Shown in pieces: positions 1 through 23,891 of a DNA stretch of 25,121 bases (its first letter is position 1; every line of letters starts with the position of its first letter). Location of the stretch: positions 1 through 25,121 of the IMG/VR virus record IMGVR_UViG_3300014169_000022. One strand, 5' to 3'. A model generated the notes under the pieces. That model was not told the origin of the DNA and ran no database searches. It saw only the letters and a list, made by a program, of their open reading frames with translations. The DNA comes from a virus. Taxonomy: Duplodnaviria; Caudoviricetes. Position numbers and translations under genes: made by a program.

Positions 1-39
1 GGAATATTGGGTTGATATGACATCTTAGCTCCTTAAGTA

Positions 40-1110
40 TCAACTTCCTGCAAAGTAAGGGGTACCATCAGTTATAGGCGTTTGCCATGGTTGAGAATAA
101 ACGGTTGGGTTTCTAACTCTGGTAATCTGGATCAGTCCGCGAGCCCTGGCTATCGATTCGTAGTAGTCATAGCGTCCTTGCAGTTTCGCTATGCTGTCAA
201 CATCTAGGTTATCCTCAAAAACAGACATAGCCGCTCCAAAAGCAATCACTTGCCACAGCTCTTGAAGTTCGGGCAATGAAGTGTTGTACATGAGAGAAGC
301 AGGCTTTCGATAGGTCTTCATTTCGACAATATAGCCATTATCGGGCACAGGAGAGACAAGGATCTGATTTTGAAAGAAAAGCACATATCGAGGCCTTGAA
401 GCTGCGTATACATAGACACTTGCAAAGATCTGGTTGCCTTGGGGTACAGGCTGACTAAAGGTAATTTCGACAGCGCCCGTGAAATAGTTAATGCTTCCCG
501 ATTGCTGAACTTGGACATCTCCAATAAACGTGCCCGTGTCCTGAAACCTGGCATTTAAACCTGTGCCTGATCCTGAAATAAGAGTAGGAGTGTCAGTCGC
601 ATTCAATGAATAGCTATTGCCCATCTGCGCCGATATCAACACCTCATTCTCAATGCCTATCGGTGTCGTGTAAGGAAAGGTAGAAAGCGTCGTGTCCGAA
701 GGGTTGTTGTTTGTCGTGTTGTACGATCTATGAAACGGAGTGCTTGATATCTGACCTGTATAGGGTCCCATTGTGTTATTACCAGTAGCTATCTGCTGAA
801 CATAAGAATATCTAGGCCTAACAGCATAAAACTGTGCAGGTTCTGTAAAGAGTTTGCACGGGTATCCGCCAATTCTAACAGGATCTTGCACATAGTCGTA
901 ATTCTCAGAGTCAAAGGCGTATACGTCAATTCCTGGCTGAGTACTAAACGTATACGTATCTTCCATCTTCAAGATGCGAAGATCAGCCGGCATTCCATAT
1001 TGTAAATAATTGTTTATGTGATAGTCGCAAGCAGCATCTGACAGCTGAGATTCATCTCTCGCCGTCAAACTTCTCATCTTATTTCTAATGGTCTGAAGGG
1101 TTGCAGACAT
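40..1110 (-). CDS. virion structural protein, putative head-tail adaptor / tail tubular protein A-like
   Basis: 356-aa ORF downstream of the capsid genes. Helical N-terminus (TLQTIRNKMRSLT...DYHINNY) and C-terminal 'ILVSPVPDNGYIVEMKTYRKP...PELQELWQVIAFGAA' resemble podovirus adaptor proteins. Assigned from position and pattern. Confidence 0.55.
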   Translation of the reverse strand: MSATLQTIRNKMRSLTARDESQLSDAACDYHINNYLQYGMPADLRILKMEDTYTFSTQPGIDVYAFDSENYDYVQDPVRIGGYPCKLFTEPAQFYAVRPRYSYVQQIATGNNTMGPYTGQISSTPFHRSYNTTNNNPSDTTLSTFPYTTPIGIENEVLISAQMGNSYSLNATDTPTLISGSGTGLNARFQDTGTFIGDVQVQQSGSINYFTGAVEITFSQPVPQGNQIFASVYVYAASRPRYVLFFQNQILVSPVPDNGYIVEMKTYRKPASLMYNTSLPELQELWQVIAFGAAMSVFEDNLDVDSIAKLQGRYDYYESIARARGLIQITRVRNPTVYSQPWQTPITDGTPYFAGS

Positions 1111-1604
1111 TAGTTTATAAACTCCTCAATCATGAAGTTAAAGCGCTGCTTTCCTCCTGTCAAAAGAGGCACATATTTTCTAACGCCTGGCGAAATTTCT
1201 ACTGGCGATTCGCTATATTGCGTTAAACGACAGTTGTTGTTGATGTAATCGGCTATGTATTTTCGAATGATATAGGTCCCACCGTCTACCATGACATGAG
1301 TTTGGATCTCTTCCCAAGGTCCCATGTGAAATTCAATCTGACCGCTCATGCTTTCGTGATTTAAAAATCGTCCCTTTACAAACTTATGATCCAAATCATA
1401 CTTTTGCTTCATCTTAGGGTGCAACTTTTCGTAGTTGAATCCTGTTTTCTTCTCACGATGGTATAAAGAGGACTGAACAGGCTCATTTTTTTGCCTTTCC
1501 ACCACGCTTCCCATATCAAGAGTGGCTACGCTTGATTGCTGAATCATGTTCTCTTCATTAAAAGCACCTTCTCCAGAGAAAAGAGCGTTTTTTTCTTTTG
1601 TCAT
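1110..1604 (-). CDS. hypothetical protein in virion module
   Basis: 164-aa ORF with SD AGGAG. TAATG overlap couples it to the next gene. Confidence 0.75.
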   Translation of the reverse strand: MTKEKNALFSGEGAFNEENMIQQSSVATLDMGSVVERQKNEPVQSSLYHREKKTGFNYEKLHPKMKQKYDLDHKFVKGRFLNHESMSGQIEFHMGPWEEIQTHVMVDGGTYIIRKYIADYINNNCRLTQYSESPVEISPGVRKYVPLLTGGKQRFNFMIEEFIN

Positions 1605-1626
1605 GTTATTTTCTCCTGCCAGTTAA

Positions 1627-1700
1627 CACAGTTAAAGGGACGGAGGGGTAACGCATAAGTTAACTGTGCAACAAACCTTTGCGTATTTTCCCCTCCTTCC
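1627..1700 (-). other. structured intergenic RNA (long hairpin, possible pseudoknot or antisense loop)
   Basis: Arms 1638-1655 and 1680-1700 are complementary (GGAGGGG/CCCCTCC, ACGCA/TGCGT). Loop segment 1660-1668 is complementary to flank 1627-1635. Confidence 0.6.
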
Positions 1701-1706
1701 TAATTT

Positions 1707-2630
1707 TTAGGTTGCTTGTTGAGCGGCATAAGCTGCGTAGTAAACTACGTCTCCTGAAGCGCCAACGATAGCTGATCCAATTATGATTCCCATCTGACCG
1801 GCGTTATAAGTGGAGTTAGTTAAAACCACCTGTTCACCAATCGGCAAAGCTTGAGGCTGCGTATAAGCTGGGCCTCCACTTGCCGGATAAGCAAATGCCG
1901 TAAATGCGCTGGTATTGATGTTAACTACATAGTTCAAGGCGTCAACGACACTGATGACTTGTCCTACCATGTTGTAAATCTGTACCATCCCAAATGGAGC
2001 ATACACATAAAAGTTTACGTAAGCGCCAACGGTCAAATTGTGAGGAACGCTAGTCGATACCTGAGCGTTTGTAGCTTGCGTAATGTTTGTGATGACAACA
2101 TCAGCCGGCTCAAATAGACCAGGATCTTGGACTTTGGTTGAATAACCACCGGTAGCCGCAGCGGCAAATCCAGATGTATTGATTGGAATGCTAAAGCTGT
2201 TAGCATCAATAACCGTGATTTGAAACAAGATACCGTTTAACTGCGTCATCCCAACAAGGTTAGTCAATCGAACGTAGTCGCCGGTTGAATAACCGTGTCC
2301 TGTTTCGCTAACAACCGCTGGGTTTGCCTGGCTAATTCCACTCAAAGCTTGAGCGGGATACAAGACAGGATTGTTATCATTGAAAAGGGTAAATCCACCC
2401 GATGTAATGACACTTGATGAATCGGTCGCGGCTGAGTTTGTGTTTTTAGTCACAAATGCACTACCGGCCGGCATTCCATTAAACCAATTCGCTTGCTTCA
2501 CCACACCTGGGTTAGCCGTTGAATTTTGGTTGCTATAGTTGTACAACTCAAAACGATCTACTCCAGAGGGAATATCAAGTAATAAAGCTGCACCTGTAGA
2601 GACATATGAACCTGTTATAATAGTAGCCAT
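1707..2630 (-). CDS. capsid decoration / minor structural protein with two repeated beta domains (E1-FCCH-like)
   Basis: Directly after the major capsid gene. Two repeats: 'ISQANPAVVSETGHGYSTGDYVRL...GMTQLNG...FSIPINTSGF' and 'ITQATNAQVSTSVPHNLTVGAYVNF...GMVQIYN...YVVNINTSAF'. Confidence 0.65.
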   Translation of the reverse strand: MATIITGSYVSTGAALLLDIPSGVDRFELYNYSNQNSTANPGVVKQANWFNGMPAGSAFVTKNTNSAATDSSSVITSGGFTLFNDNNPVLYPAQALSGISQANPAVVSETGHGYSTGDYVRLTNLVGMTQLNGILFQITVIDANSFSIPINTSGFAAAATGGYSTKVQDPGLFEPADVVITNITQATNAQVSTSVPHNLTVGAYVNFYVYAPFGMVQIYNMVGQVISVVDALNYVVNINTSAFTAFAYPASGGPAYTQPQALPIGEQVVLTNSTYNAGQMGIIIGSAIVGASGDVVYYAAYAAQQAT

Positions 2631-2643
2631 ATAGTGTTACTCC

Positions 2644-3603
2644 TTAAGCTGCTTGTGTGCTTCGTAGATTAATAATCCATCCATCGTTCAACACACGCTG
2701 AGCCATAGCAAACTTAAAGCCAGCTGTCTGTCTCAAGTTGGTTGGGTCATTTCCCCAGCCAAGTGGTTTGTAAATGAATTGAGCCGTAGCGCCATCAAGA
2801 TAGATTTGGCCGTAGCTTTCCATACCCACAACAAAGTTGTTATAAACGGTATTTCCAAGACCTGAAGCATTTAAAGAAAGGCTTCCAAGTGGGCTAAGCA
2901 ACCATCTCGTGTTTCGAACGGCTCCCCACTCTGGTCTTAAAATATGTTCTTGATACGGGTATTCGGAAACGGGTTTGAAATCCAGAACGTTTTCCAAATC
3001 GCTCGATAAGTTGGTATGCGCCAAAACCATGTAGGCTTGACGTACTGGGCTTGTACCAAATTTCATCGCGCCGTCTTCAACATCCATGATTGTACGAGCT
3101 GAGTTGGTCAGCAATGTACGTGTCACGTTTGAAATATCGGTCGCTGTCAATTCTGTTGGTATATCGCCGTTTACACCCGCTGTGCAGTTCACGAAGGAAG
3201 CTGTCGCAAGCAAAGTATCTCGCATCAGCTGGTCTTCAGTTTCACGCAAGCATTGTGCAAGCAGATCAACAGTTTGAGCGAGTACGTCCTCTTGAGAAAT
3301 CAAGCTAACCTGATCCGTCAAAATCACATAGCCGTTATACCACTGAATCGTTGCATCAATGTTAACGTTTGAAAGAGGAAGCGCAGGGCCTGTTAGGCCT
3401 GATGCTCCGACAGGGACCGGCACAGTTGGCAGGTTGTTATAGCGTCTAAATCTATGGATATTACCAGACGCCATCGGGTGCTGCTTTTTCATGGAAAGCA
3501 GACTGTGAATAGTATAAGGACGCTTACGAGCTAACAATAAGTCGTCAGCGTATTGCTGCACTTGGGGTGGCAGCGTATTAATGGTATTGATTGGGCCCGA
3601 CAT
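2644..3603 (-). CDS. major capsid protein, N4-gp56-like family
   Basis: 319 aa after the scaffold gene. Motifs 'FRRYNNL', 'LRETEDQLMRDTL', 'EWGAVRNTRW' and 'DPTNLRQTAGFKF...LNDGWI' resemble N4-gp56-type capsids. Confidence 0.85.
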   Translation of the reverse strand: MSGPINTINTLPPQVQQYADDLLLARKRPYTIHSLLSMKKQHPMASGNIHRFRRYNNLPTVPVPVGASGLTGPALPLSNVNIDATIQWYNGYVILTDQVSLISQEDVLAQTVDLLAQCLRETEDQLMRDTLLATASFVNCTAGVNGDIPTELTATDISNVTRTLLTNSARTIMDVEDGAMKFGTSPVRQAYMVLAHTNLSSDLENVLDFKPVSEYPYQEHILRPEWGAVRNTRWLLSPLGSLSLNASGLGNTVYNNFVVGMESYGQIYLDGATAQFIYKPLGWGNDPTNLRQTAGFKFAMAQRVLNDGWIINLRSTQAA

Positions 3604-3641
3604 GGTCGCCTCAAGCTTGTAGCTAAAGGCATCAGACTAGG

Positions 3642-4322
3642 CTAGTAATTTCCGCCGAGATAGTTTTGAGCTCTTTTTAAAGCTGCCGCTTGCCGTGCTT
3701 CAATCTCTGCTATCGTGTTACCTGTCCCCATCGATGCGCTAGGATTTTTAGCCCCAGCCTCATTCAATGACCTTGGCGTAGAGGAAACTTCCTCTAGCTT
3801 TTTTCTCAAGTCAGGTTCACTTTTTTTAGTAGTCGGAGTATGAAGTTTTTTTAACAATTGGTACGCTGCCTCGTAGGGATTATCACTTTTCCTAACCATC
3901 TGCGCTAAAGCGGGGTTGCTAAGCAAATGTGTTTCTACGGTTTCGTCTGAAACATACTCGTCGTAATCCCGATACTTTATCCGCGCGATGTCTTCCTCTG
4001 ACAAGGCAGGCTTTTTTTGATTCTTAAGAGCTTCTATCTCACGCTTCAGCTTTTTTAAATGCTTGGCTTCTACCGTGTCATCATCAGCTAATGAATCAAA
4101 CTCATCTGGCTGACTCTGCTTTGCTCTTTCAATCTCCAAAAGTCTTGCTTCAAGTTCTTGGGCTCTTCTTTCTGCCTCATTCTTGCGCCTTTCGAGCTCC
4201 TTAAAATTCCTCTGAGCTACTTCAGAGTTAGGAGTTCTCGACGCCTCGGTGACCACATCTTGAGCAGCGACGGCCTGCTCTGTTACGCTAGAAACATCTT
4301 TAGATGCTGTTTCATCAGACAT
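3642..4322 (-). CDS. putative capsid scaffolding protein
   Basis: Charged coiled-coil protein immediately upstream of the capsid gene. Start at 4322 preferred because SD AAGGTG precedes it. Confidence 0.7.
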   Translation of the reverse strand: MSDETASKDVSSVTEQAVAAQDVVTEASRTPNSEVAQRNFKELERRKNEAERRAQELEARLLEIERAKQSQPDEFDSLADDDTVEAKHLKKLKREIEALKNQKKPALSEEDIARIKYRDYDEYVSDETVETHLLSNPALAQMVRKSDNPYEAAYQLLKKLHTPTTKKSEPDLRKKLEEVSSTPRSLNEAGAKNPSASMGTGNTIAEIEARQAAALKRAQNYLGGNY

Positions 4323-4382
4323 ATTCACCTTATTTGCACAGTTTCGGCTTGAGTGAAGAGCCATAACACTCAGTTAACATTG

Positions 4383-4411
4383 AAAGTATTTATAAATTGA
4401 ATTTTATGCAA
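4383..4411 (-). promoter_or_regulatory. sigma70/66-like promoter for scaffold-capsid genes
   Basis: TTGCAT-17 bp-TACTTT on the minus strand in the intergenic gap. Confidence 0.45.
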
Positions 4412-4420
4412 GCCATTCTT

Positions 4421-4882
4421 TTATTTGAATGAAGAAAAATCACCTCTTGCATACTCTTTGACCCATTTTACTAGGGTTTGATCGTATTCTTGCGGCATAG
4501 CCAGTATTTTACTCATCGAATAAGGTGGAGGCAGGGTCCATTTTAGCTCCAAAACATCTGTTCGGTGATTGTAGTAATAAACCTGTGTAGAGGGTTGTGG
4601 TTCAGGTCTAGTCCATCTAGCCTGTATCACTTGCCTCACCACAGTTTCCTTTTTCATGTCCTTCCACATAGCTATTTCTATCCAGAAAGACTTTCCAGGA
4701 TGTTTCTTTACTTCACTAGCTAAAAAGGTGTCCCTGCGCTTAATCAGTTCATCTTCCATCGATAAACGCATTTCAATGACCGGTATTTCCGGTCCATCAA
4801 GCATTTTCGTCTGTTCGATCAAAAGCTTACTGGCGAAATCTTGCGATTTCTTCACACCCATCTCGTAAGAGTTTAGTTGCAC
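4421..4882 (-). CDS. hypothetical protein in head module
   Basis: 153-aa ORF with GTG start preceded by GAGGT. Confidence 0.75.
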   Translation of the reverse strand: MQLNSYEMGVKKSQDFASKLLIEQTKMLDGPEIPVIEMRLSMEDELIKRRDTFLASEVKKHPGKSFWIEIAMWKDMKKETVVRQVIQARWTRPEPQPSTQVYYYNHRTDVLELKWTLPPPYSMSKILAMPQEYDQTLVKWVKEYARGDFSSFK

Positions 4883-4893
4883 AGTTATAACCT

Positions 4894-5094
4894 CTAAACT
4901 TCACAATTTCGAGACATATGACCGCGAATCTTTGCGGAATCGTGTCTGTAATCCTCTTCATTCTTTGACATATAAGTTTTGTCATCTGGGTACATGTTAT
5001 TGCCATACTTTGGCGCGCTAACAAGTGTACCGCTGTTTTCCATTCTAGCTGGGATTCCAGCCATTTTAGGGCCTCTAACTCTATCTTCTTTCAT
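4894..5094 (-). CDS. small hypothetical protein
   Basis: 66 aa, SD AAGGAG, fills the gap after the portal gene. Confidence 0.7.
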   Translation of the reverse strand: MKEDRVRGPKMAGIPARMENSGTLVSAPKYGNNMYPDDKTYMSKNEEDYRHDSAKIRGHMSRNCEV

Positions 5095-5123
5095 AGTGTG
5101 TCTCCTTGCAAGTTGACATCTTA

Positions 5124-5152
5124 AAACTAATTTTTAATTGACGATTTGTCAA
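5124..5152 (-). promoter_or_regulatory. sigma70/66-like promoter
   Basis: TTGACA-17 bp-TAGTTT on the minus strand at the end of the portal gene. Confidence 0.5.
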
Positions 5153-7215
5153 GATTTTACTGCTGTTTCTTTTTCTTTATCTTGCATCGATAACTCGCTC
5201 AAATGCTTCAGAGTTTCTATTTGTGTCTTCAAATGCTCTAAATCAAGCCCTTTCAGCTCTTTGAGCGCTTTAACCAGATTGAGCATAGCTTGGGTATCTT
5301 CAGCATGGGCTTTTTCCATACGCTCAAGGCTTTCCATTTTCTCGACTTGCATCTTTGACATACGCTCAGCTGCAAGCGCTTTATCACTTTGTGATTTCGC
5401 AATGAGCACTTCATTCTCGATCTGCATGTTTTGCATTTCAATTTGTTGCTGATGAGCCAATTGCTGTTGCTGTTGCTGCATCGCTGCCTGAGTCGCATTC
5501 ACAAGATCGTTTTTGTTCTGAAGATTCATCGTCTTCATAATCTCTTGAACAATTTCAGGGGTTTGGATACCCATTTTGTAGATGTCATAGAGCTGAGCTG
5601 CTTGCATCTGTCGTTGTGTTGACGTATTCATGCCATCTTCGATCGAAATGTCATATTTCTCGATGTAAGGAGATAGAATATCTTCTGACGGCATGCGTCC
5701 CAAAATGCGCGCAAACTTCCACTTATTCCAATTCTTTTGCATGATCTCGATGTCGATATCGCCTATCATCGCTTGTGAGTTATCAAATCGGTTAAAGATG
5801 GTTTCGAGTGTTACAATACCCGCCGATTGCCTCAGCATGTTCAATACGCCCGACTGCGTATCATTTGTATCGAGTCCGAGCAACGCTTCCGATATGCCCG
5901 ATATCTCCATGACAGCCTCTTTCATCATCTGCGACATTTCAACCATGCCTTGATTGAGCTGAGCCGGTTGCTCTCGAATGCGTGAAAGTGCAGGATCTTT
6001 ACCGCGCTTGAAGAATCGAACGGTGCCATTACCTGTTTTTTGAGCATCTTCGGGCGTTAAATAGAAGTCCTCTTCGACAAGCTCACCTGCGTTCACCTGA
6101 GATTCCATGCCATCCAATCCAAGCACAATCATGCGATTAAAGATGTATTGCGGATCTCGTAAACGTCTTGTAATGCCTTGAAACTTAAATGGCCAATCGT
6201 TAAAAGCTGGCTCGAAATAAGATAAGATTGGAGTGAATGGATAACGATCAATCTTTAAGGGATTAGGGCCATGGTACAACACTTTTCGATTCGCAATGAT
6301 GCCAAGTCTAACCGTCGGCTTCATATACTTTATTTCTTTGATGTCTTCCATTTCCACGAATAATTGAGGATCAACCTTGGTGCCCTCTTTTAGCTCTTTC
6401 ATTTCTCCGGTTTTCATATTGACTAAAGCTCTAACTTCTCGAACGTCAGCATACCAGTACTCATCGACGGGAATCATGCCTCGAACTGAGTACTGATTAT
6501 TCTCGGGCATGAAATAAAACTTTGCGTCTCGAAGATCGGCTGTACTTATAGACATGATTTCTTCTGCCATTTTTGGCATCAGAGCTACTAGCGCTTTCCT
6601 GTCCATATAGCGCCTTACCCATATGTAAGAACAGTCACTTAGGTTAGGATTTCTCCAAAACGGATCACAGAATATGCTCGAGTACTCGAGCACTCTGTGC
6701 TTAATATCGCCATTAACAAGATCTTCTCGTCTGTCTAGCCAAGATTCTATAAAGCTAAGCCCTACTTTCTGAGCGCTTGCAAACGCATCGCTAAAGTGCT
6801 CATACGCTCCACTTTTCGCATACGCCCACTGAATGCAATTGCTTAAGTCATCAGCCATCTGCTGTTGTGAATATCCAGTCTGCTGGGGTGTGACAATCGT
6901 CGTTTTACGCTGCTGCCTTTGTCTACCGCACACCATCTCGATGCATTTATTGACGATGTTGAAGTGAAGTTGTCTCTTGCCAGTGGTGGGAAAGTCTGTA
7001 CCGTAGCTCGACCATACGCTTTGATCGCCTACTACCGTGCGCATATCCATATTGGCCTCATTCCAAAAGCCTTGCCAAATCGGACTTGCTTGCGAATAAG
7101 ATATGTCGACTCGATCGAGAAGGGCTTTCTCGTTTGCGACTTCATCTAAATCTTTGTACCACGTAGGGATCGGAGGATTTTCAGGCTCAGACCCAGGAAG
7201 CACTTGAATCGGCAT
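5149..7215 (-). CDS. portal protein (P22-like)
   Basis: 688 aa after TerL. Motifs 'LHFNIVNKCIEMVCGRQRQ', 'YPFTP' and 'GITRRLRDPQYIFNR', plus a Q-rich C-terminal coiled coil, fit P22-type portals. Confidence 0.85.
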   Translation of the reverse strand: MPIQVLPGSEPENPPIPTWYKDLDEVANEKALLDRVDISYSQASPIWQGFWNEANMDMRTVVGDQSVWSSYGTDFPTTGKRQLHFNIVNKCIEMVCGRQRQQRKTTIVTPQQTGYSQQQMADDLSNCIQWAYAKSGAYEHFSDAFASAQKVGLSFIESWLDRREDLVNGDIKHRVLEYSSIFCDPFWRNPNLSDCSYIWVRRYMDRKALVALMPKMAEEIMSISTADLRDAKFYFMPENNQYSVRGMIPVDEYWYADVREVRALVNMKTGEMKELKEGTKVDPQLFVEMEDIKEIKYMKPTVRLGIIANRKVLYHGPNPLKIDRYPFTPILSYFEPAFNDWPFKFQGITRRLRDPQYIFNRMIVLGLDGMESQVNAGELVEEDFYLTPEDAQKTGNGTVRFFKRGKDPALSRIREQPAQLNQGMVEMSQMMKEAVMEISGISEALLGLDTNDTQSGVLNMLRQSAGIVTLETIFNRFDNSQAMIGDIDIEIMQKNWNKWKFARILGRMPSEDILSPYIEKYDISIEDGMNTSTQRQMQAAQLYDIYKMGIQTPEIVQEIMKTMNLQNKNDLVNATQAAMQQQQQQLAHQQQIEMQNMQIENEVLIAKSQSDKALAAERMSKMQVEKMESLERMEKAHAEDTQAMLNLVKALKELKGLDLEHLKTQIETLKHLSELSMQDKEKETAVKS

Positions 7216-7258
7216 TAAAAACGTCTACACTTTGCACAGTATAAATTTTTAATTTACT

Positions 7259-8749
7259 CTACATATACCGCGTTTTACGCGCAAAGTCTATCTGTTTGCG
7301 CTGATCTGCCGTAAAACCTGTATTTTTCACAAAATCTAAGCCTTCTATGGCGTACATTAAACTAGATGCGCCGTGCGAATTTTCGTCATGAAAGGGCTCT
7401 CTAGCCCAAAAGCCGGTACTTACCCACTTTTTGCGATAGTTGTCTAAGCATTTGATCCCAGCTTTACACTTTTCTACGTCGAACCAGCATCGATTAAAAT
7501 GGGTTCTAGCTAAGTCAATCGAAAGCTGAATGTCTGGCGTTCGTCTAATCACATCAAAATCTATGCCTAAGCGTCTTGCGAATTCTCTTCGAGTCAAACC
7601 GGTTTGGAGCTCATGTGCTTCGATATCATGGGGCGCAAAATGCTTAGCGTATTGATATGGCTTGTTTCTGATTAGCTCGATGTATTCCTGAAGGCTCTTG
7701 CCTTGGTCTTGATAGTAGTCAATGAAATGGATCTCCTGGCCGCATATCTGAAAAAACCAAATTGCTGTGTGATCTGAATAGCCTAAATCCCACGCGGTGT
7801 AAACAAGCTGCGATCGATCGAGCGGTACATGCGATATGCGATTCTGAGCTCTTGCTATCATCAATTGTGGGCCGAAGATAAGTCCCTCTTGTGAAGCTTC
7901 AAAAGCTTCAGCTGGCGTAGTGGGATATTCTCTCATCATATCTTCGCCAAGCGCTGCTTTTTTCTTTGTGTACCACACTTTTTGCGAAGGTCCTAAAATA
8001 ATGCCTGATTTTTCCAGTACATCAAAGTATTTTTCCGTCTCAACCGGTATGTAGACGGCTTCATCAATCTTGTAATCGGGCTCTTTGTACCAGGGAAAAA
8101 AGTGGAATTGATAGTCTAGTGTGGTAAGTTTTATCTTTGATTTGGCTGCGTCTTGAGCTTCTATGCACAAGTCATGAAAATGGCCTTCTCTGCCTTCTGC
8201 GGTGGATTCAATAAAGCAGATACCATTCTTTGGCACTGCTTCAATAGCGCCTGTGCGTATTTCTCTAGCCTTTTCAGGATACTTAGCGCATATCTTCCCG
8301 TATTCTGATACTAGCAGTCTCTGCAAGGTATCCCCACGCATCGAAAGTCCTACACGCAAGCTAGAACCGTTTGATAAGCTAAGTTCTGTCTGTGAATCGC
8401 GAATGGGGTAGATGATCTTTTTGAATGATTCGGGAAGGTTGTCATAAGCATATTTAACGCGTCTGAAGATTTTGCGAACGTCTTCCTCGGTATGTGCGAT
8501 GATACCGGCTTTCAGATCACTGGTGAAAAGACAATCGTCTAAAAAGAAAAGGCTTATAGCCGTTGTACAACCCAGCTGTCTAGCTTTCAGAATGACGTTT
8601 CTATACCAAATGTTTTGATATAACTCTATCTGAGCCCAGTTCGGCTGATAAGTGATCTGCTTTCCGTCCTTGTCTACTATCTTGTACATGCAAGACAGGC
8701 GCTTCCAACGATCTTTTATAAGCTCATCAACTGTAAAGCTGCTTGACAT
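7259..8749 (-). CDS. terL: terminase large subunit
   Basis: Walker A-like 'LKARQLGCTT', Walker B 'LLVSE', coupling motif 'ESTAEG', nuclease motif 'AWDLGYSD', also 'APHD'. Confidence 0.93.
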   Translation of the reverse strand: MSSSFTVDELIKDRWKRLSCMYKIVDKDGKQITYQPNWAQIELYQNIWYRNVILKARQLGCTTAISLFFLDDCLFTSDLKAGIIAHTEEDVRKIFRRVKYAYDNLPESFKKIIYPIRDSQTELSLSNGSSLRVGLSMRGDTLQRLLVSEYGKICAKYPEKAREIRTGAIEAVPKNGICFIESTAEGREGHFHDLCIEAQDAAKSKIKLTTLDYQFHFFPWYKEPDYKIDEAVYIPVETEKYFDVLEKSGIILGPSQKVWYTKKKAALGEDMMREYPTTPAEAFEASQEGLIFGPQLMIARAQNRISHVPLDRSQLVYTAWDLGYSDHTAIWFFQICGQEIHFIDYYQDQGKSLQEYIELIRNKPYQYAKHFAPHDIEAHELQTGLTRREFARRLGIDFDVIRRTPDIQLSIDLARTHFNRCWFDVEKCKAGIKCLDNYRKKWVSTGFWAREPFHDENSHGASSLMYAIEGLDFVKNTGFTADQRKQIDFARKTRYM

Positions 8750-9189
8750 TATGATTTCTTGATTGCTGATTCGCTCTTGTTAACGATCTCTTCCATAGCC
8801 TCGCGAGCACCGACTAAAGCTTCATTCTCTTGTTTCTTTAGAGAGCTTTTGAATCTAGATTCTGCGTCCTCTTCATCTCTAACTTCGCTGAAATAATATC
8901 TCAAGAATCTATGGCTTATTGATGGATTAACAGTGCCGTTGATATATTGTAGAGCTATTTCTCTCATTGCAATGTCATAATAGGGGACAAACTCAGGTCT
9001 CTTCGACATAGTATCAAAATCGCTTTTAGATATACCCATGTGACTACTATAGTATTCTGATATATGCATAGGTGAATTTTCTTCAATCCAGCTTAGCATA
9101 TACTCGCCCATTTTAATCATCTCTTCGGGCTCTAGAGATACTGTGCGCGGTCTTCCAATTCTCCTTTTTTTTACAACCTGTTCGGACAT
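8749..9189 (-). CDS. terS: putative terminase small subunit
   Basis: 146 aa with N-terminal 'GRPR' motif, directly upstream of and coupled to TerL. Confidence 0.7.
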   Translation of the reverse strand: MSEQVVKKRRIGRPRTVSLEPEEMIKMGEYMLSWIEENSPMHISEYYSSHMGISKSDFDTMSKRPEFVPYYDIAMREIALQYINGTVNPSISHRFLRYYFSEVRDEEDAESRFKSSLKKQENEALVGAREAMEEIVNKSESAIKKS

Positions 9190-9317
9190 TACTTACCTCT
9201 CTTTAGAACAGCTTTAAGAGTCTTTTTACTATGCTCGAATTGCTTAGTATCACCGTACTTTTTAGTGATAAACCTTTTAGAGGGAGCACGAGCGCTCGTG
9301 ACAGAGAATGAGTGCAT
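9189..9317 (-). CDS. 42-aa basic protein (not in ORF track)
   Basis: MHSFSVTSARAPSKRFITKKYGDTKQFEHSKKTLKAVLKRGK. SD GAGGT and TAATG coupling at both ends. Confidence 0.65.
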   Translation of the reverse strand: MHSFSVTSARAPSKRFITKKYGDTKQFEHSKKTLKAVLKRGK

Positions 9318-9454
9318 TACTTACCTCTCCCTCTAGCTTTACGTTGCATGCTGTAAGCAGCGGCTACAGATTGTTTTTCGGGATGACCTGATCTTCGCAT
9401 CTCAGCGATGTTTTCAGACAAGACTTTCTTTGATTTACCTTTCTTGAGCGGCAT
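9317..9454 (-). CDS. 45-aa basic protein (not in ORF track)
   Basis: MPLKKGKSKKVLSENIAEMRRSGHPEKQSVAAAYSMQRKARGRGK. Resembles a widespread small phage protein. First gene after the promoter. Confidence 0.75.
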   Translation of the reverse strand: MPLKKGKSKKVLSENIAEMRRSGHPEKQSVAAAYSMQRKARGRGK

Positions 9455-9474
9455 AGAGACTCTCTGTTAGAGCC

Positions 9475-9502
9475 ATGATACTAAAATGTTTATTTGAGTC
9501 AA
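9475..9502 (-). promoter_or_regulatory. promoter of packaging/head operon
   Basis: TTGACT-16 bp-TATCAT on the minus strand. Confidence 0.55.
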
Positions 9503-9506
9503 ATGA

Positions 9507-9588
9507 GAAAAAAGAGAACGTGGGCGGATCAGTGTCTTACGCTTGCCGAGCCTACGTTCTCTAAAATTCTAAGAGGCTAATCTTAGAT
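9507..9588 (-). ncRNA. candidate ~80-nt antisense sRNA (sRNA-1)
   Basis: Promoter TTGCAG(9618-9623)-17-TAAGCT(9595-9600), 5' hairpin UCUAAGA-UUAGCC-UCUUAGA, terminator-like stem 9513-9525/9550-9562 plus U-tract. Carries a 13-nt complement of the RBS at 9725-9737. Confidence 0.6.
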
Positions 9589-9638
9589 GACGCTAGCTTA
9601 ACGATTACCTATTTTTTCTGCAACATCCATTTTTTATA

Positions 9639-9667
9639 TTGCGCATAATTCTTGCATTTGTTATATT
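9639..9667 (+). promoter_or_regulatory. promoter of rightward early operon
   Basis: TTGCGC-17 bp-TATATT. Confidence 0.5.
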
Positions 9668-9737
9668 TATGACATACAAGCTATAGAGTTGCTCAAGAGC
9701 AATCTAGGGCGAGTTTTAAAACTATAAGAGGCTAATC

Positions 9738-9995
9738 ATGAAAAAACTAATTGGTGACACATATAATTTTCGAGAACAAATCAAATCAAGCGGCGGCAAA
9801 TGGGACTCTACACAAAAATGTTGGTTTGTGCCCGATGACAAATACGACGCTCTGCAAAAATTAGTTGGAGCGATAGATGATGGTTTAAAGCTGAATACGC
9901 AGTTATGGGAAGAATGTGAAATTTGCGGACAAGAGCCGATTTATCTAGAAGTTGGAGTTTGTGCTGCATGTGCACGAAAGGGGCGTCGAAGATGA
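9738..9995 (+). CDS. small protein, DUF5710-like N-terminus plus C4 zinc finger
   Basis: 'TYNFREQIKSSGGKWDSTQKCWFVP' pattern; CEIC...CAAC. Confidence 0.7.
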   Translation: MKKLIGDTYNFREQIKSSGGKWDSTQKCWFVPDDKYDALQKLVGAIDDGLKLNTQLWEECEICGQEPIYLEVGVCAACARKGRRR

Positions 9996-10201
9996 AAATA
10001 GACTTAGGTTGTAATATTAAAGAATCTTTTGGTCAATTAGAGCCGGGCGATGTTTTTCAAGTGTTAGGGCGTAATATTGTTTATTTAAAACTAGAATCTT
10101 CGATTGGAAAAGCGGTTGTTTTGGAAAGTGGAAAAATTCATGACTTTGACGATTTTACGATAATTAAACCCTTAAACTGCAAAGTCGTATTGAATCAATA
10201 A
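9992..10201 (+). CDS. hypothetical beta-rich protein (paralogue A1)
   Basis: Start at 9992 via ATGA overlap. Aligns with 10211..10438. Confidence 0.75.
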   Translation: MKIDLGCNIKESFGQLEPGDVFQVLGRNIVYLKLESSIGKAVVLESGKIHDFDDFTIIKPLNCKVVLNQ

Positions 10202-17077: not shown

Positions 17078-17124
17078 ATAAGAATTGCCCCAAAAGGGGG
17101 GTTACGGCATAGTTCAGCCATTGT

Positions 17125-17225
17125 AAAAAAAAGAATGCCCAGGCCTTTAATCACCTGGGCAAAAAACTCTGTACTTCCCATACAGAAAAAACCATAAGTT
17201 TTACACTCTTTTTTGTGCAAGAGGT
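17125..17225 (-). ncRNA. candidate ~100-nt RNA antisense to the rep leader (sRNA-3)
   Basis: Promoter TTGCCA(17254-17259)-18-TAAGAT(17230-17235) on minus; terminator stem 17136-17143/17154-17161 followed by a U-tract. Confidence 0.5.
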
Positions 17226-17291
17226 AATGATCTTAACTTATGGTTTCTTTAAATGGCAAGTCAGAGTTTCTAACGATAGGAGCTCTCATCT

Positions 17292-21190: not shown

Positions 21191-21604
21191 TTATTTAAAC
21201 TCAACTTGATTTTGATGCTCTTTCCTGAGGATGATAAATCGGGCTCTGAAGGGGTACTTTGCATCCCTGAATTTTGGGTCATGCTCATGGACGATATCGA
21301 ATAAGTTTTCTTGGATGCTCTCTTCCAGTTTGTCGCAAAATTCCTTCTTAAGCTGCATAAGATAGGCAAGTGGCGTTTCGGTTACCTCATAGCCTCGACG
21401 AGCTCGCTTGATAAGTCTATGCTCATAATCGGACCAAAGGAGCGCGGCTTTGACAAGATCTTGCCATGGCGTAAGATCGCCAGTAGGCTCCTGGACCTTG
21501 AACTGCCAGCAATTGCAGTCGTATTCAATAGTAGCTCTGGTAAGTGAATTGACGATCATAAATGACCCTCCTTCCTTACCCTTTCTTTTTACGCCGACTC
21601 TCAT
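21191..21604 (-). CDS. hypothetical protein
   Basis: ORF in operon with a strong SD before the internal MIVNS start. Confidence 0.7.
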   Translation of the reverse strand: MRVGVKRKGKEGGSFMIVNSLTRATIEYDCNCWQFKVQEPTGDLTPWQDLVKAALLWSDYEHRLIKRARRGYEVTETPLAYLMQLKKEFCDKLEESIQENLFDIVHEHDPKFRDAKYPFRARFIILRKEHQNQVEFK

Positions 21605-21951
21605 TATTTGGGAATGTAAACGTATTGCATCTTTCGGGTCTTGATGCGATGCATCTCTAAAACAAAGTGACGTTCATGAAAAAGTCTATCTATGTCTGTG
21701 ATAGGCCCGTATCGCTCAGCTAACTTGTGAAACTTATCTATCTTATGATAAAGCATTTTTATCTCTATATCGCTGATGTCGGTAACGTTTGGTTTTTTAC
21801 AGAGCTCTTCCTCTTGTCGTACCCAGTCTATGGCAGCTCTGACAGTTCTAGAATATTTAGTAAAACCCCAAAAAGGCCTGTGATGGTATCCCCAGTCGAT
21901 CATACTATAGCTAAATCCCCTTGGGTGAGTACTAACTGTGATAATGTCCAT
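21604..21951 (-). CDS. hypothetical protein
   Basis: SD AGGA, 115 aa. Confidence 0.7.
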   Translation of the reverse strand: MDIITVSTHPRGFSYSMIDWGYHHRPFWGFTKYSRTVRAAIDWVRQEEELCKKPNVTDISDIEIKMLYHKIDKFHKLAERYGPITDIDRLFHERHFVLEMHRIKTRKMQYVYIPK

Positions 21952-22057: not shown

Positions 22058-22268
22058 GTTTCCATCAAAGCATACTTCGGCTACCTTGAACTTGGAAACA
22101 AAAAAAGGAAAATGGAATGCATGAAGTAGCCCCCATTGCATTAGTGGTGTTACTCGCCTTCACGTTCTTGATACGTGAGTTGTAACAGCGCCACCCACTA
22201 GTTTGTAAAGAGCTAGTGGGGTTGCTTTAACAACTGCTCAGCATTTTCCCTGAGAAAACTTCAACACA

Positions 22269-22338
22269 TGTATAGGAAATGGAGTTTTTCTATACATAGG
22301 AACAAGGTCATGTATAGAAAATCGTTGTTTTCTATACA
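22269..22338. repeat. two tandem 28-bp palindromes (11-6-11)
   Basis: TGTATAGGAAA-TGGAGT-TTTTCTATACA at 22269 and TGTATAGAAAA-TCGTTG-TTTTCTATACA at 22311. Confidence 0.8.
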
Positions 22339-22353
22339 CAGATTTCATGAAAA

Positions 22354-22698: not shown

Positions 22699-22754
22699 TT
22701 ATAACTTCCTGCCTATAAATTACAAAGGACAGCCTACAAGACTGTCCCCTGCAT

Positions 22755-22788
22755 TAAAAACTAGAGAAGCTTATAACTCTAGTTTTTA
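22755..22788. terminator. possible bidirectional terminator
   Basis: TAAAAACTAGAG/CTCTAGTTTTTA inverted repeat directly after the peptide gene stop. Confidence 0.5.
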
Positions 22789-23006: not shown

Positions 23007-23091
23007 TGCCTCGTGTAGGACTTGAACCTACGCATTAGATTTGTGCCCATGAAAGACACCAACTAAACTCTACCAACTGAGCTAACGAGGC
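23007..23091 (-). tRNA. atypical tRNA-like RNA (Lys-like body, elongated anticodon arm, no encoded CCA)
   Basis: Acceptor GCCTCGT/ACGAGGC+A, D-arm GCTC-AGTTGGTA-GAGT, T-arm GTAGG-TTCAAGT-CCTAC. About 12 extra nt in the anticodon arm. Confidence 0.75.
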
Positions 23092-23095
23092 GTTA

Positions 23096-23461
23096 TCATT
23101 TTAGGAATTCGTATCGTTCTTGATCAATCTTTTTCTGGTCTTCAAGATCGGGTCGATTATATATGTAGTAGTGAAGCCTACTTCTTGGGTGAAATCGTGC
23201 CTTCAAAGCGTACGGGTTTCGCGTACGCTTGACATTGCGATTGATATCGCCATAGATTTTGTTTGGCATCGTGTCATAATGAAAAGCTAGTATTAGTGTT
23301 TCCCCAGGCTCACGTATGCCATAAGACGGCCACGGTAACAATTGGATCACAAATTCGCTTCCAACTCGGTTAATGCACCTTCCAGGGCAATATAGTCCTC
23401 GCTTTCGGTCGTAATGGCACCAAACAAAATCCCCGATCTTAGGTTTTACAACATGCTTCAT
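23096..23461 (-). CDS. hypothetical protein (paralogue B1)
   Basis: Strong similarity to 23466..23891. Confidence 0.8.
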   Translation of the reverse strand: MKHVVKPKIGDFVWCHYDRKRGLYCPGRCINRVGSEFVIQLLPWPSYGIREPGETLILAFHYDTMPNKIYGDINRNVKRTRNPYALKARFHPRSRLHYYIYNRPDLEDQKKIDQERYEFLK

Positions 23462-23465
23462 GTAA

Positions 23466-23891
23466 TTATTTTAAAAAATCGTGATATCCTTGAGCAGATT
23501 TTTTAGCTTCCAGGTAATAATCGCCGAAATAATCACGAGGTGCTGCATGAAAGATCGCATAATAATCTCCTCTTTTTTCTCCCAGCATCCTTAAAATACC
23601 ACATTCGCCTTTTCCGCTAACCCATCCCTCTAGCATATAAGGATTACGTTTGGTTTTGACGTTTCGGTTTATATCACCATAAACTTTATTTGGAGTTTTA
23701 GCATAACTAAATGCAACTGTAACATGCTTAACGTTTTCTGGCTGTAATACATCCCAAGCGTAGGTCAAAAACTTTACAATGAAAGTACTTCCTATCCGGC
23801 GTATACACTTTCCAGGGCAAGGTCTACCACCCTTTCCGTCGTAGTAACACCAAACGAATTCGCCTATTTTAGGCTTGATTACATGTTCCAT
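23466..23891 (-). CDS. hypothetical protein (paralogue B2)
   Basis: Shares KPKIG.FVWC.YD, CPG.CI, PNK.YGDINRNVK..RNPY and C-terminal Y.FLK with B1. Confidence 0.8.
   Translation of the reverse strand: MEHVIKPKIGEFVWCYYDGKGGRPCPGKCIRRIGSTFIVKFLTYAWDVLQPENVKHVTVAFSYAKTPNKVYGDINRNVKTKRNPYMLEGWVSGKGECGILRMLGEKRGDYYAIFHAAPRDYFGDYYLEAKKSAQGYHDFLK

Follow-up and report, generated by a model that had tools for sequence, protein, structure and literature searches.

A hairpin loop behind the capsid genes of an uncultured tailed phage matches a word at head-module gene starts: a candidate 3'-derived antisense RNA

Introduction

In Vibrio cholerae, the OppZ and CarZ RNAs come from the 3' ends of operons and pair with the starts of upstream genes in the same locus, where they inhibit translation and create negative feedback; they are cut by RNase E and associated with Hfq, as was shown experimentally (PMC7398697). 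A related arrangement is proposed here for an uncultured tailed phage (Duplodnaviria; Caudoviricetes), from which we analyzed a stretch of 25,121 nt (positions 1–25,121 of IMG/VR record IMGVR_UViG_3300014169_000022; hereafter, the window) whose terminase, portal, and capsid genes all lie on the minus strand. Past the open reading frame (ORF) that follows the capsid gene, a predicted minus-strand hairpin at 1638–1700 exposes a loop complementary to a 9-nt word, ACUGUGCAA, that recurs at the starts of head-module genes. Like OppZ and CarZ, this candidate antisense RNA element is in a 3' untranslated region (UTR) on the same strand as the message, and its accessible seed offers 9–12 contiguous pairs at three starts. 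Unlike them, it is phage-encoded, its seed sits in the apical loop of a long hairpin, one word serves several starts, and it is known from sequence alone.

Among phage RNAs, C4 of P1/P7 is processed from a longer transcript and acts in trans, its exposed loops pairing at a ribosome-binding site or close to one; the fold has three stem-loops and two loops that pair, RNase P cuts it, and its roles are in immunity and lysogeny (PMC5320573). Pairing of a loop with a ribosome site by a phage RNA is likewise proposed here, but the element has one hairpin, one loop, head-module targets, and no Rfam match, and it falls outside the C4 family. Lambda OOP, P22 sar/sas, and BTP1 STnc6030 are transcribed opposite a single target with long complementarity, and STnc6030 acts on a structural gene, that of the tailspike (PMC12197685). 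What they have in common with the present proposal is the repression of phage genes through pairing with one of the phage's own RNAs; unlike these cis-encoded antisense RNAs, the element has targets 2.7–5.6 kb away with which it shares 9–12 nt. A further parallel is the start-associated sequence (SAS) of Cluster K phages, a 13-bp, GGGATAGGAGCCC-like sequence that holds AGGAG, lies 3–7 bp before starts, and occurs in 11–19 copies; it is conserved across phages, confined to non-structural genes, and of unknown function (PMC3203893). The word in the window is similarly short, asymmetric, private to its phage, and placed at starts in one orientation, with three sense copies and one inverted copy. 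It differs from SAS in having 9 nt, no Shine-Dalgarno (SD) core, structural-module genes, variable spacing, and an inverted copy in a hairpin loop, and it does not fit the SAS consensus.

Unequal output of capsid, scaffold, and portal proteins from shared late messages is usually ascribed to ribosome sites of fixed strength or to proteins that regulate their own synthesis. If the proposal is true, a seed-bearing hairpin that ends the capsid message would add RNA feedback to the control of head-protein ratios, and, because most relatives carry a plain hairpin there, the case would show a regulatory RNA arising from a terminator; its weight is limited, since it comes from a single phage with one variant. 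The literature searched, which covered few subscription papers and no supplements, contained no phage RNA of such design, and the terms capsid, portal, and stoichiometry do not occur in a 2025 review of phage small RNAs (PMC12197685).

Results

A sequence-only reading of this DNA had proposed that the hairpin loop is antisense to a motif at five gene starts, and the hairpin and all five sites are indeed where it had placed them. An exhaustive count over the whole window located ACTGTGCAA three times on the minus strand (4334–4342, 4877–4885, and 7232–7240) and once on the plus strand (1663–1671, the loop). In the mRNA sense, every copy of ACUGUGCAA thus lies at a start region (the probable scaffold gene, ORF 4421–4882, and the portal gene, respectively), and its single complement lies inside the 12-nt loop of the hairpin. 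The same count agreed with the earlier remark that the capsid gene and ORF 1707–2630, which that reading called the decoration gene (a name kept here), have no site at their starts; none was found at the terminase or ORF 40–1110 starts, or before any gene in the 5.9 kb of tail module past the window (L173).

The contiguous matches cover staggered, overlapping parts of one 22-nt loop segment. The best target is the start of ORF 4421–4882 (4871–4893, minus), where 12 contiguous pairs (4876–4887) run over the GUG, with five further pairs past a 1-nt bulge and four more over the SD past a 2-nt bulge. At the scaffold gene (4334–4343, minus), 10 contiguous pairs lie between a predicted leader pseudoknot and the SD and stop 1 nt short of UAAGGUG and 11 nt upstream of the AUG. 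The portal site (7232–7240, minus) offers nine contiguous pairs 16 nt upstream of the AUG; its GUGCAA is the loop of a local hairpin (z −2.54), so that only a 6-bp loop-loop contact is free. A further target, before ORF 1110–1604 (1620–1635, minus), consists of overlapping UUAACUGUG and GUUAACUG and occurs solely on transcripts that read through the hairpin. Three matches had been overlooked: GUUAACUG at 1620–1627 within that target, the same 8-nt match at 4371–4378 (minus), close to the scaffold leader's putative 5' end, and AACTGTGCA on the plus strand at 830–838, which is within the coding sequence of ORF 40–1110, gives the mRNA strand a second seed-like word, and is probably there by chance.

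The hairpin itself (63 nt, −27.4 kcal/mol, z −4.08) was equalled in stability by 0 of 200 shuffles and is among the five most stable non-coding folds of the window. It starts 6 nt past the decoration stop (1707) and is built of a G/C-rich lower stem, an asymmetric internal loop, two 5-bp upper stems, and a 12-nt apical loop, UGUUGCACAGUU (1673–1662, minus), which is open in the predicted fold and contains the 9-nt seed UUGCACAGU (1671–1663, minus), at whose positions the unpaired probability is 0.38–0.99. An exposed stretch of 18 nt had been claimed; the loop is present, but its open part is 12 nt, and the ends of the 18-mer pair in the weak upper stem. A terminator scan did not call the hairpin; it may serve as a processing stem or terminate transcription leakily. 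An Rfam search of window positions 1–10000, with E up to 5, returned nothing meaningful. As a separate feature, a self-complementary AGUUAACU occupies 1657–1666 in the loop and is a 10-nt palindrome in the variant described below, so two copies of the hairpin could pair together. We rejected a pseudoknot in cis between the loop and the adjacent site at 1627–1635, as there are 2 nt between the 20-bp stem and the site and the alternative fold reaches −18.0 vs −32.6 kcal/mol, which is 14.6 kcal/mol worse than the hairpin.

Most related phages carry simpler structures at this position. Among 93 distinct post-decoration spacers (the window's included), 82 have a hairpin of −10 kcal/mol or lower, with loops of 3–8 nt in 78 of these 82, and the median span of the family hairpin is 29 nt (69 spacers) compared with 63 nt in the window. 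Many of the relatives' spacer hairpins combine a purine-rich 5' arm with a C-rich 3' arm, like the lower stem in the window, whose hairpin amounts to a family-type lower stem plus approximately 40 extra nt that form the two short upper stems and the loop. We infer a lineage-specific gain, in which the seed was inserted into an older terminator-like or 3'-protecting family hairpin.

Four copies of the word were seen, and an order-2 Markov model predicts 0.14 per 50 kb; over 2.35 Mb of other loci, with both strands counted, the same 9-mer turns up 15 times. It is the only 9-mer common to three of the 42 start regions of the window, and the only non-coding 9-mer with its complement in three distant start regions. 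In 5000 runs of each of two types of null, some non-low-complexity 9-mer occurred at three start regions in 10–12% of runs and, when a complement anywhere in non-coding DNA was also demanded, in 0.7%. Judged by a fair null, the pattern is less extreme than the earlier figure (about 0.2 copies of a given 9-mer in 50 kb) suggests. The value of 0.7% is not the full measure, because the real complement sits in the loop of a stable fold, a far smaller target.

Two controls in relatives, both of which recovered the window's own record as a positive control, gave a similar picture. Across 84 loci of at least 6 kb, 14 words had three sense copies and a non-coding complement; only in the window's own record were all three copies at starts, the other 13 words having at most one there. 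Across 84 loci that each carry homologues of three or all four target genes, and in which the starts of the portal gene, the ORF-4421 homologue, the scaffold gene, and the ORF-1110 homologue were compared, a 9-mer common to the starts was found only in the window's record, and one other locus shares a 7-mer. The combination of loop and start word was present in 0 of 83 distant relatives.

We ranked the 42 start regions by their pairing with the loop. By duplex energy without accessibility, the first four were ORF 4421–4882 (−23.0 kcal/mol), ORF 1110–1604 (−17.3), scaffold (−15.2), and portal (−15.1), with the 66-aa ORF 12th and the capsid gene 14th. When the opening cost of both RNAs was included by using our own script, scaffold (−11.7 kcal/mol), ORF 4421–4882 (−10.5), and ORF 1110–1604 (−9.1) took ranks 1–3, and the next gene reached −7.3. 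A duplex that covers a GUG or SD, or that ends one base before an SD, has a placement typical of repression. The change in ribosome-site opening cost upon binding has no uniform direction (+0.3 to +1.0 for scaffold, −0.8 for portal, −1.0 for the 66-aa ORF, and −2.8 for ORF 1110–1604); for portal and ORF 1110–1604, the effect could go either way, because binding also loosens local structure.

The scaffold site adjoins a second RNA structure, a predicted H-type pseudoknot in the scaffold leader (4345–4372, minus), whose stem 1 is UGAGUG:CACUCA instead of the usual GGCG:CGCC. Small predicted H-type pseudoknots beside the SD characterize the scaffold leaders of the family, the pattern being found in 60 of 103 leaders vs 9.9% of shuffles; they have a GGCG or GACG stem 1 and a variable 5-bp stem 2, and they also occur in capsid leaders, often in tandem. 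In 25 distinct leaders selected on the conserved stem-1 words only, stem 2 is paired at 88.8%, and its columns show several pair types each; the value in 5000 shuffles, which take no account of relatedness, is 44.6 ± 4.6%. The 69 pattern hits, a number that includes duplicates, all lie on the coding strand, 43 of them at scaffold and 17 at capsid genes; examples are L010:7244–7269, L015:3695–3719, L119:7260–7284, L050:1640–1690, and L069:1920–1970, among others. A comparison of 18 loci bearing such pseudoknots with Rfam gave 0 hits. In the window, the seed site fills the 13-nt gap between pseudoknot and SD, a gap that measures 0–9 nt in 24 of 25 relatives under a pattern biased to short gaps. 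Because the site stands beside a covarying pseudoknot, the leader is already an RNA-structured region.

Other elements were noted around this leader. A second pseudoknot-like unit, with GCGTAA followed by GAGCAG/CTGCTC around GCCGTCG, appears to be located at approximately 4290–4250 (minus) in scaffold codons 10–22, and similar units are found at the scaffold coding start in L036, L088, L096, L135, and L149. Just past the stop of ORF 4421–4882, GGCUUGCAUA at 4405–4414 (minus) overlaps a putative −35 box; on read-through transcripts, its pairing partner in cis could be either the scaffold seed site or stem 2 of the pseudoknot.

A variant of the phage in run X3 has spacer changes at 1641, 1645, 1656, 1657, and 1704 and none at 1658–1703 or 1605–1640 (one contig, depth 3.8), and it keeps the predicted fold and the open seed. 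X3 contigs over 3957–4939 and 4956–5357, which include the scaffold, ORF-4421, and 66-aa ORF sites, are identical to the window. Along window positions 1–10000, identical stretches (3957–5357 and 5927–6444) alternate with stretches of approximately 94% identity (1089–2465 and 6844–8913) at similar depth, a sequence pattern that suggests a mosaic relative. Capsid homologues at 73–97% identity are present as proteins, and scans of viral contigs, metagenomes, genomes, and GenBank phages yielded only the same phage or relatives at approximately 35–65% identity. Exact loop matches outside this phage (12 of 13 loci in one search and 5 of 6 in another) had no homologous genes and were discarded as chance. 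One RNA run contains contigs over 1672–1944, 3260–3870, 3996–4363, and 4530–5091. None of the contigs listed for RNA run X5 (one study) spans the hairpin, and one ends at 1672; two of them end 15–26 nt short of the start points of putative promoters. Being contigs of a single study, they support no reading of ends or gaps.

Discussion

Taken together, the feature is real and non-random, and it is most likely a variation, resting on one phage, of the 3'-derived antisense RNA theme. The chances are about even for a more specific claim, namely that the message of the capsid region, through the loop at its 3' end and either intact or clipped, pairs with head-module starts and lowers the translation of at least scaffold and ORF 4421–4882 while sparing capsid and decoration. 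Transcripts would stop or be cut at the hairpin, as the family-wide hairpin at the same position leads us to infer, and the RNA, either the 3' end of the message or a clipped piece of approximately 60–80 nt, would build up late. UUGCAC would nucleate on an exposed GUGCAA, whereupon the duplex would extend through the weak upper stem. Covering the GUG and SD of ORF 4421–4882, and the bases that adjoin the scaffold SD, would block ribosome loading. The capsid and decoration genes would escape because they have no site, and in the course of infection they would yield increasingly more product than the targets do. Because the sites are staggered and extended by bulges and G-U pairs, RNA pairing fits them better than a fixed DNA-binding site does. 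Rather doubtful is the fullest version, in which the terminator hairpin of the capsid message has turned into a multi-target antisense RNA that acts as a counter, turning down scaffold, portal, and two neighboring proteins as the capsid message accumulates and so setting head-protein ratios. The earlier suggestion that the feedback sets virion stoichiometry is conjectural too.

Several results weigh against the antisense proposal. The sequence-only reading had counted portal and the 66-aa ORF among the targets of its feedback; with accessibility included, only the three other sites stand out, as portal is then only 9th (−6.1 kcal/mol, from its 6-bp loop-loop contact) and the 66-aa ORF 22nd of 42. 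The bulged partial match before the 66-aa ORF (5106–5114, minus) does exist, yet it pairs at background level (12th and 22nd of 42 in the two rankings), and we dropped it as a target. The anatomy fits a trans-acting loop, but portal is weak, the 66-aa site fails, and the energy is moderately unusual at best: raw duplex energy has p = 0.0115 against 2000 shuffled loops and 0.04 when the best site is removed, the loop ranks 11th among 2530 non-coding 22-mers by pairing energy, and a coding stretch at 21672–21761 (minus, in ORF 21604–21951) pairs as strongly (−23.2 kcal/mol) through a predicted G-U-rich duplex. What stands out is the exact seed shared by the starts and where it lies; by itself, the energy is unremarkable.

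The remaining objections concern termination, conservation, and expression. Only three U (1636–1634) follow the stem, which makes termination there doubtful. Conservation of the seed region in X3 is not significant (0 of 37 vs 5 of 65 positions changed, p = 0.16), and distant relatives are without both loop and sites. In the homologue P0082, codon 2 encodes His rather than the Gln of the window, from which a single-base difference follows at the final A of the best-site word. Among 66 further loci, one, reached via portal and terminase, passes the test of three starts plus complement (L182, with a Shine-Dalgarno-type word). The RNA evidence consists of contigs, which show no strand, end, or level and may reflect DNA carry-over, and for two of the best three targets the encoded protein has no known function.

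An unlikely alternative is that an RNA-binding regulator of translation recognizes ACUGUGCAA in hairpin loops at these starts, the inverted copy being a decoy on an antisense transcript. The leaders of portal and ORF 4421–4882 hold the word in predicted loops, and the family keeps structured scaffold and capsid leaders, the kind read by proteins in other phages; autoregulation is a property of T4 gene 32 and of the P22 scaffold. A decoy could draw on the plus-strand fold at 1638–1700, which is stable too (z −3.60), but the word is partly paired on that strand, and there is no plus-strand gene or convincing promoter; the promoter scan gave two matches of 9/12 to the consensus at 1361–1402, and its hits overall were fewer than in shuffles. 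No candidate protein was found, ORF 4421–4882 giving no informative fold match (a weak match does not rule out this ORF as the reader), and a protein that reads loops leaves the staggered, bulged matches to the loop flanks without explanation.

No more probable is the suggestion that the word is a DNA site, either operator- or stoperator-like or a SAS-type start-associated sequence, with the inverted copy as a further site within the terminator. For a protein-binding motif with one inverted copy, which the sequence-only reading had named as its alternative, Cluster K provides a precedent in anatomy, with an asymmetric sequence in one orientation and a single inverted copy in four genomes (PMC3203893), and the loop palindrome AGTTAACT, which extends to 10 bp in the X3 variant, the location of two sites shortly downstream of promoter-like boxes, and the plus-strand AACTGTGCA at 830–838 would all suit a DNA site. 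The distance to the start codon ranges from overlap to 22 nt upstream, vs 3–7 bp for SAS, and the word lacks a Shine-Dalgarno core; moreover, a DNA site does not account for an inverted copy that fills the apical loop exactly, or for the bulged extensions. As a promoter element, the word was rejected: it abuts one SD, −10-like hexamers are out of register across the sites, and, because it overlaps the start codon of ORF 4421–4882, it is not a promoter for that ORF.

Still less probable, we think, is that the hairpin is simply a terminator or an RNase III-type stem, with a loop derived from the adjacent 1620–1635 through a local inverted duplication, the other matches being separate (e.g., a translation enhancer) and no pairing in trans taking place. 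In its favor, 82 of 93 spacers have a hairpin at this position, the loop and 1627–1635 form an inverted repeat 24 nt apart, and two helices with an asymmetric internal loop between them are reminiscent of RNase III substrates; against local duplication, 1627–1635 shares UUAACUGUG without the GCAA end, and it is through GCAA that the loop matches three distant sites. Chance, as a pattern picked post hoc, is highly improbable, even though nulls place a 9-mer at 3 of 42 starts in 10–12% and a non-coding complement in 0.7%, the screening of very many windows will turn up such cases, and no conservation stands behind the pattern, since the 0.7% leaves out the head-module placement of all three sites, the 10- and 12-nt extensions, and the complement that fills a hairpin loop, and 0 of 83 related loci show the pattern.

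Gene layout and additional observations

The window carries a large terminase gene (7259–8749, minus) and a P22-like portal gene (5149–7215, minus; PF16510, E 3e-62; phrog_156). Between portal and capsid lie the 66-aa ORF, ORF 4421–4882, and the probable scaffold gene (3642–4322, minus), whose function is suggested by its place before the capsid gene and its coiled-coil-like sequence; family searches with this ORF gave no match. The major capsid protein (2644–3603, minus) is N4-gp56-like, as judged from phrog_1357 (E 3e-25) and the names of homologues. It is followed by the decoration gene (1707–2630, minus), which has an FCCH-like domain and weak similarity to tail and head protein families, a 102-nt spacer, ORF 1110–1604, and ORF 40–1110. 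Recombination and replication genes are located further right in the window than the head genes.

Two of the target genes encode conserved proteins of unknown function. ORF 4421–4882 (minus, 153 aa) has a family of 98 distinct members in the fetched loci, the window's own copy counted; its sequence matches are uncharacterized phage proteins only, and its structural model (predicted local distance difference test score, 88.8) has a best PDB match of Z 4.0. ORF 1110–1604 (minus, 164 aa), which lies 3' of the hairpin, has 92 distinct family members in the fetched loci, and 0 of 83 members match PHROGs. The starts used above are backed by homologues: P0084 begins at the same position as the scaffold start (4322), and P0082 begins at the GTG of ORF 4421–4882 and has Leu at the downstream ATG. 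By eye, two sigma-70-like promoter candidates were recognized, one upstream of the scaffold leader (4383–4411, minus; TTGCAT, 17 nt, TACTTT) and one upstream of the 66-aa ORF (5124–5152, minus; TTGACA, 17 nt, TAGTTT); both are under the threshold of the promoter scan.

Several minor observations were made. In one relative (L099:3640–5580), six start regions carry AACCCTAGG, in many cases with ACTTTATG after it, and the locus lacks a complement of it. The capsid gene is split by insertions of 0.2–1.4 kb, possibly introns, in many relatives (L004:204–1517, L005:6322–8612, L096, L124, L125, L132, and L135). Elsewhere in the window, other stable non-coding hairpins, some of them paired, are found at 22713–22788, 22161–22340, 9273–9590, and 17089–17250. 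A tRNA-His gene of 85 nt with a GTG anticodon lies at 23007–23091 (minus), and the adjacent ORFs 23096–23461 and 23466–23891 (minus) have alike N-termini, an apparent tandem gene duplication.

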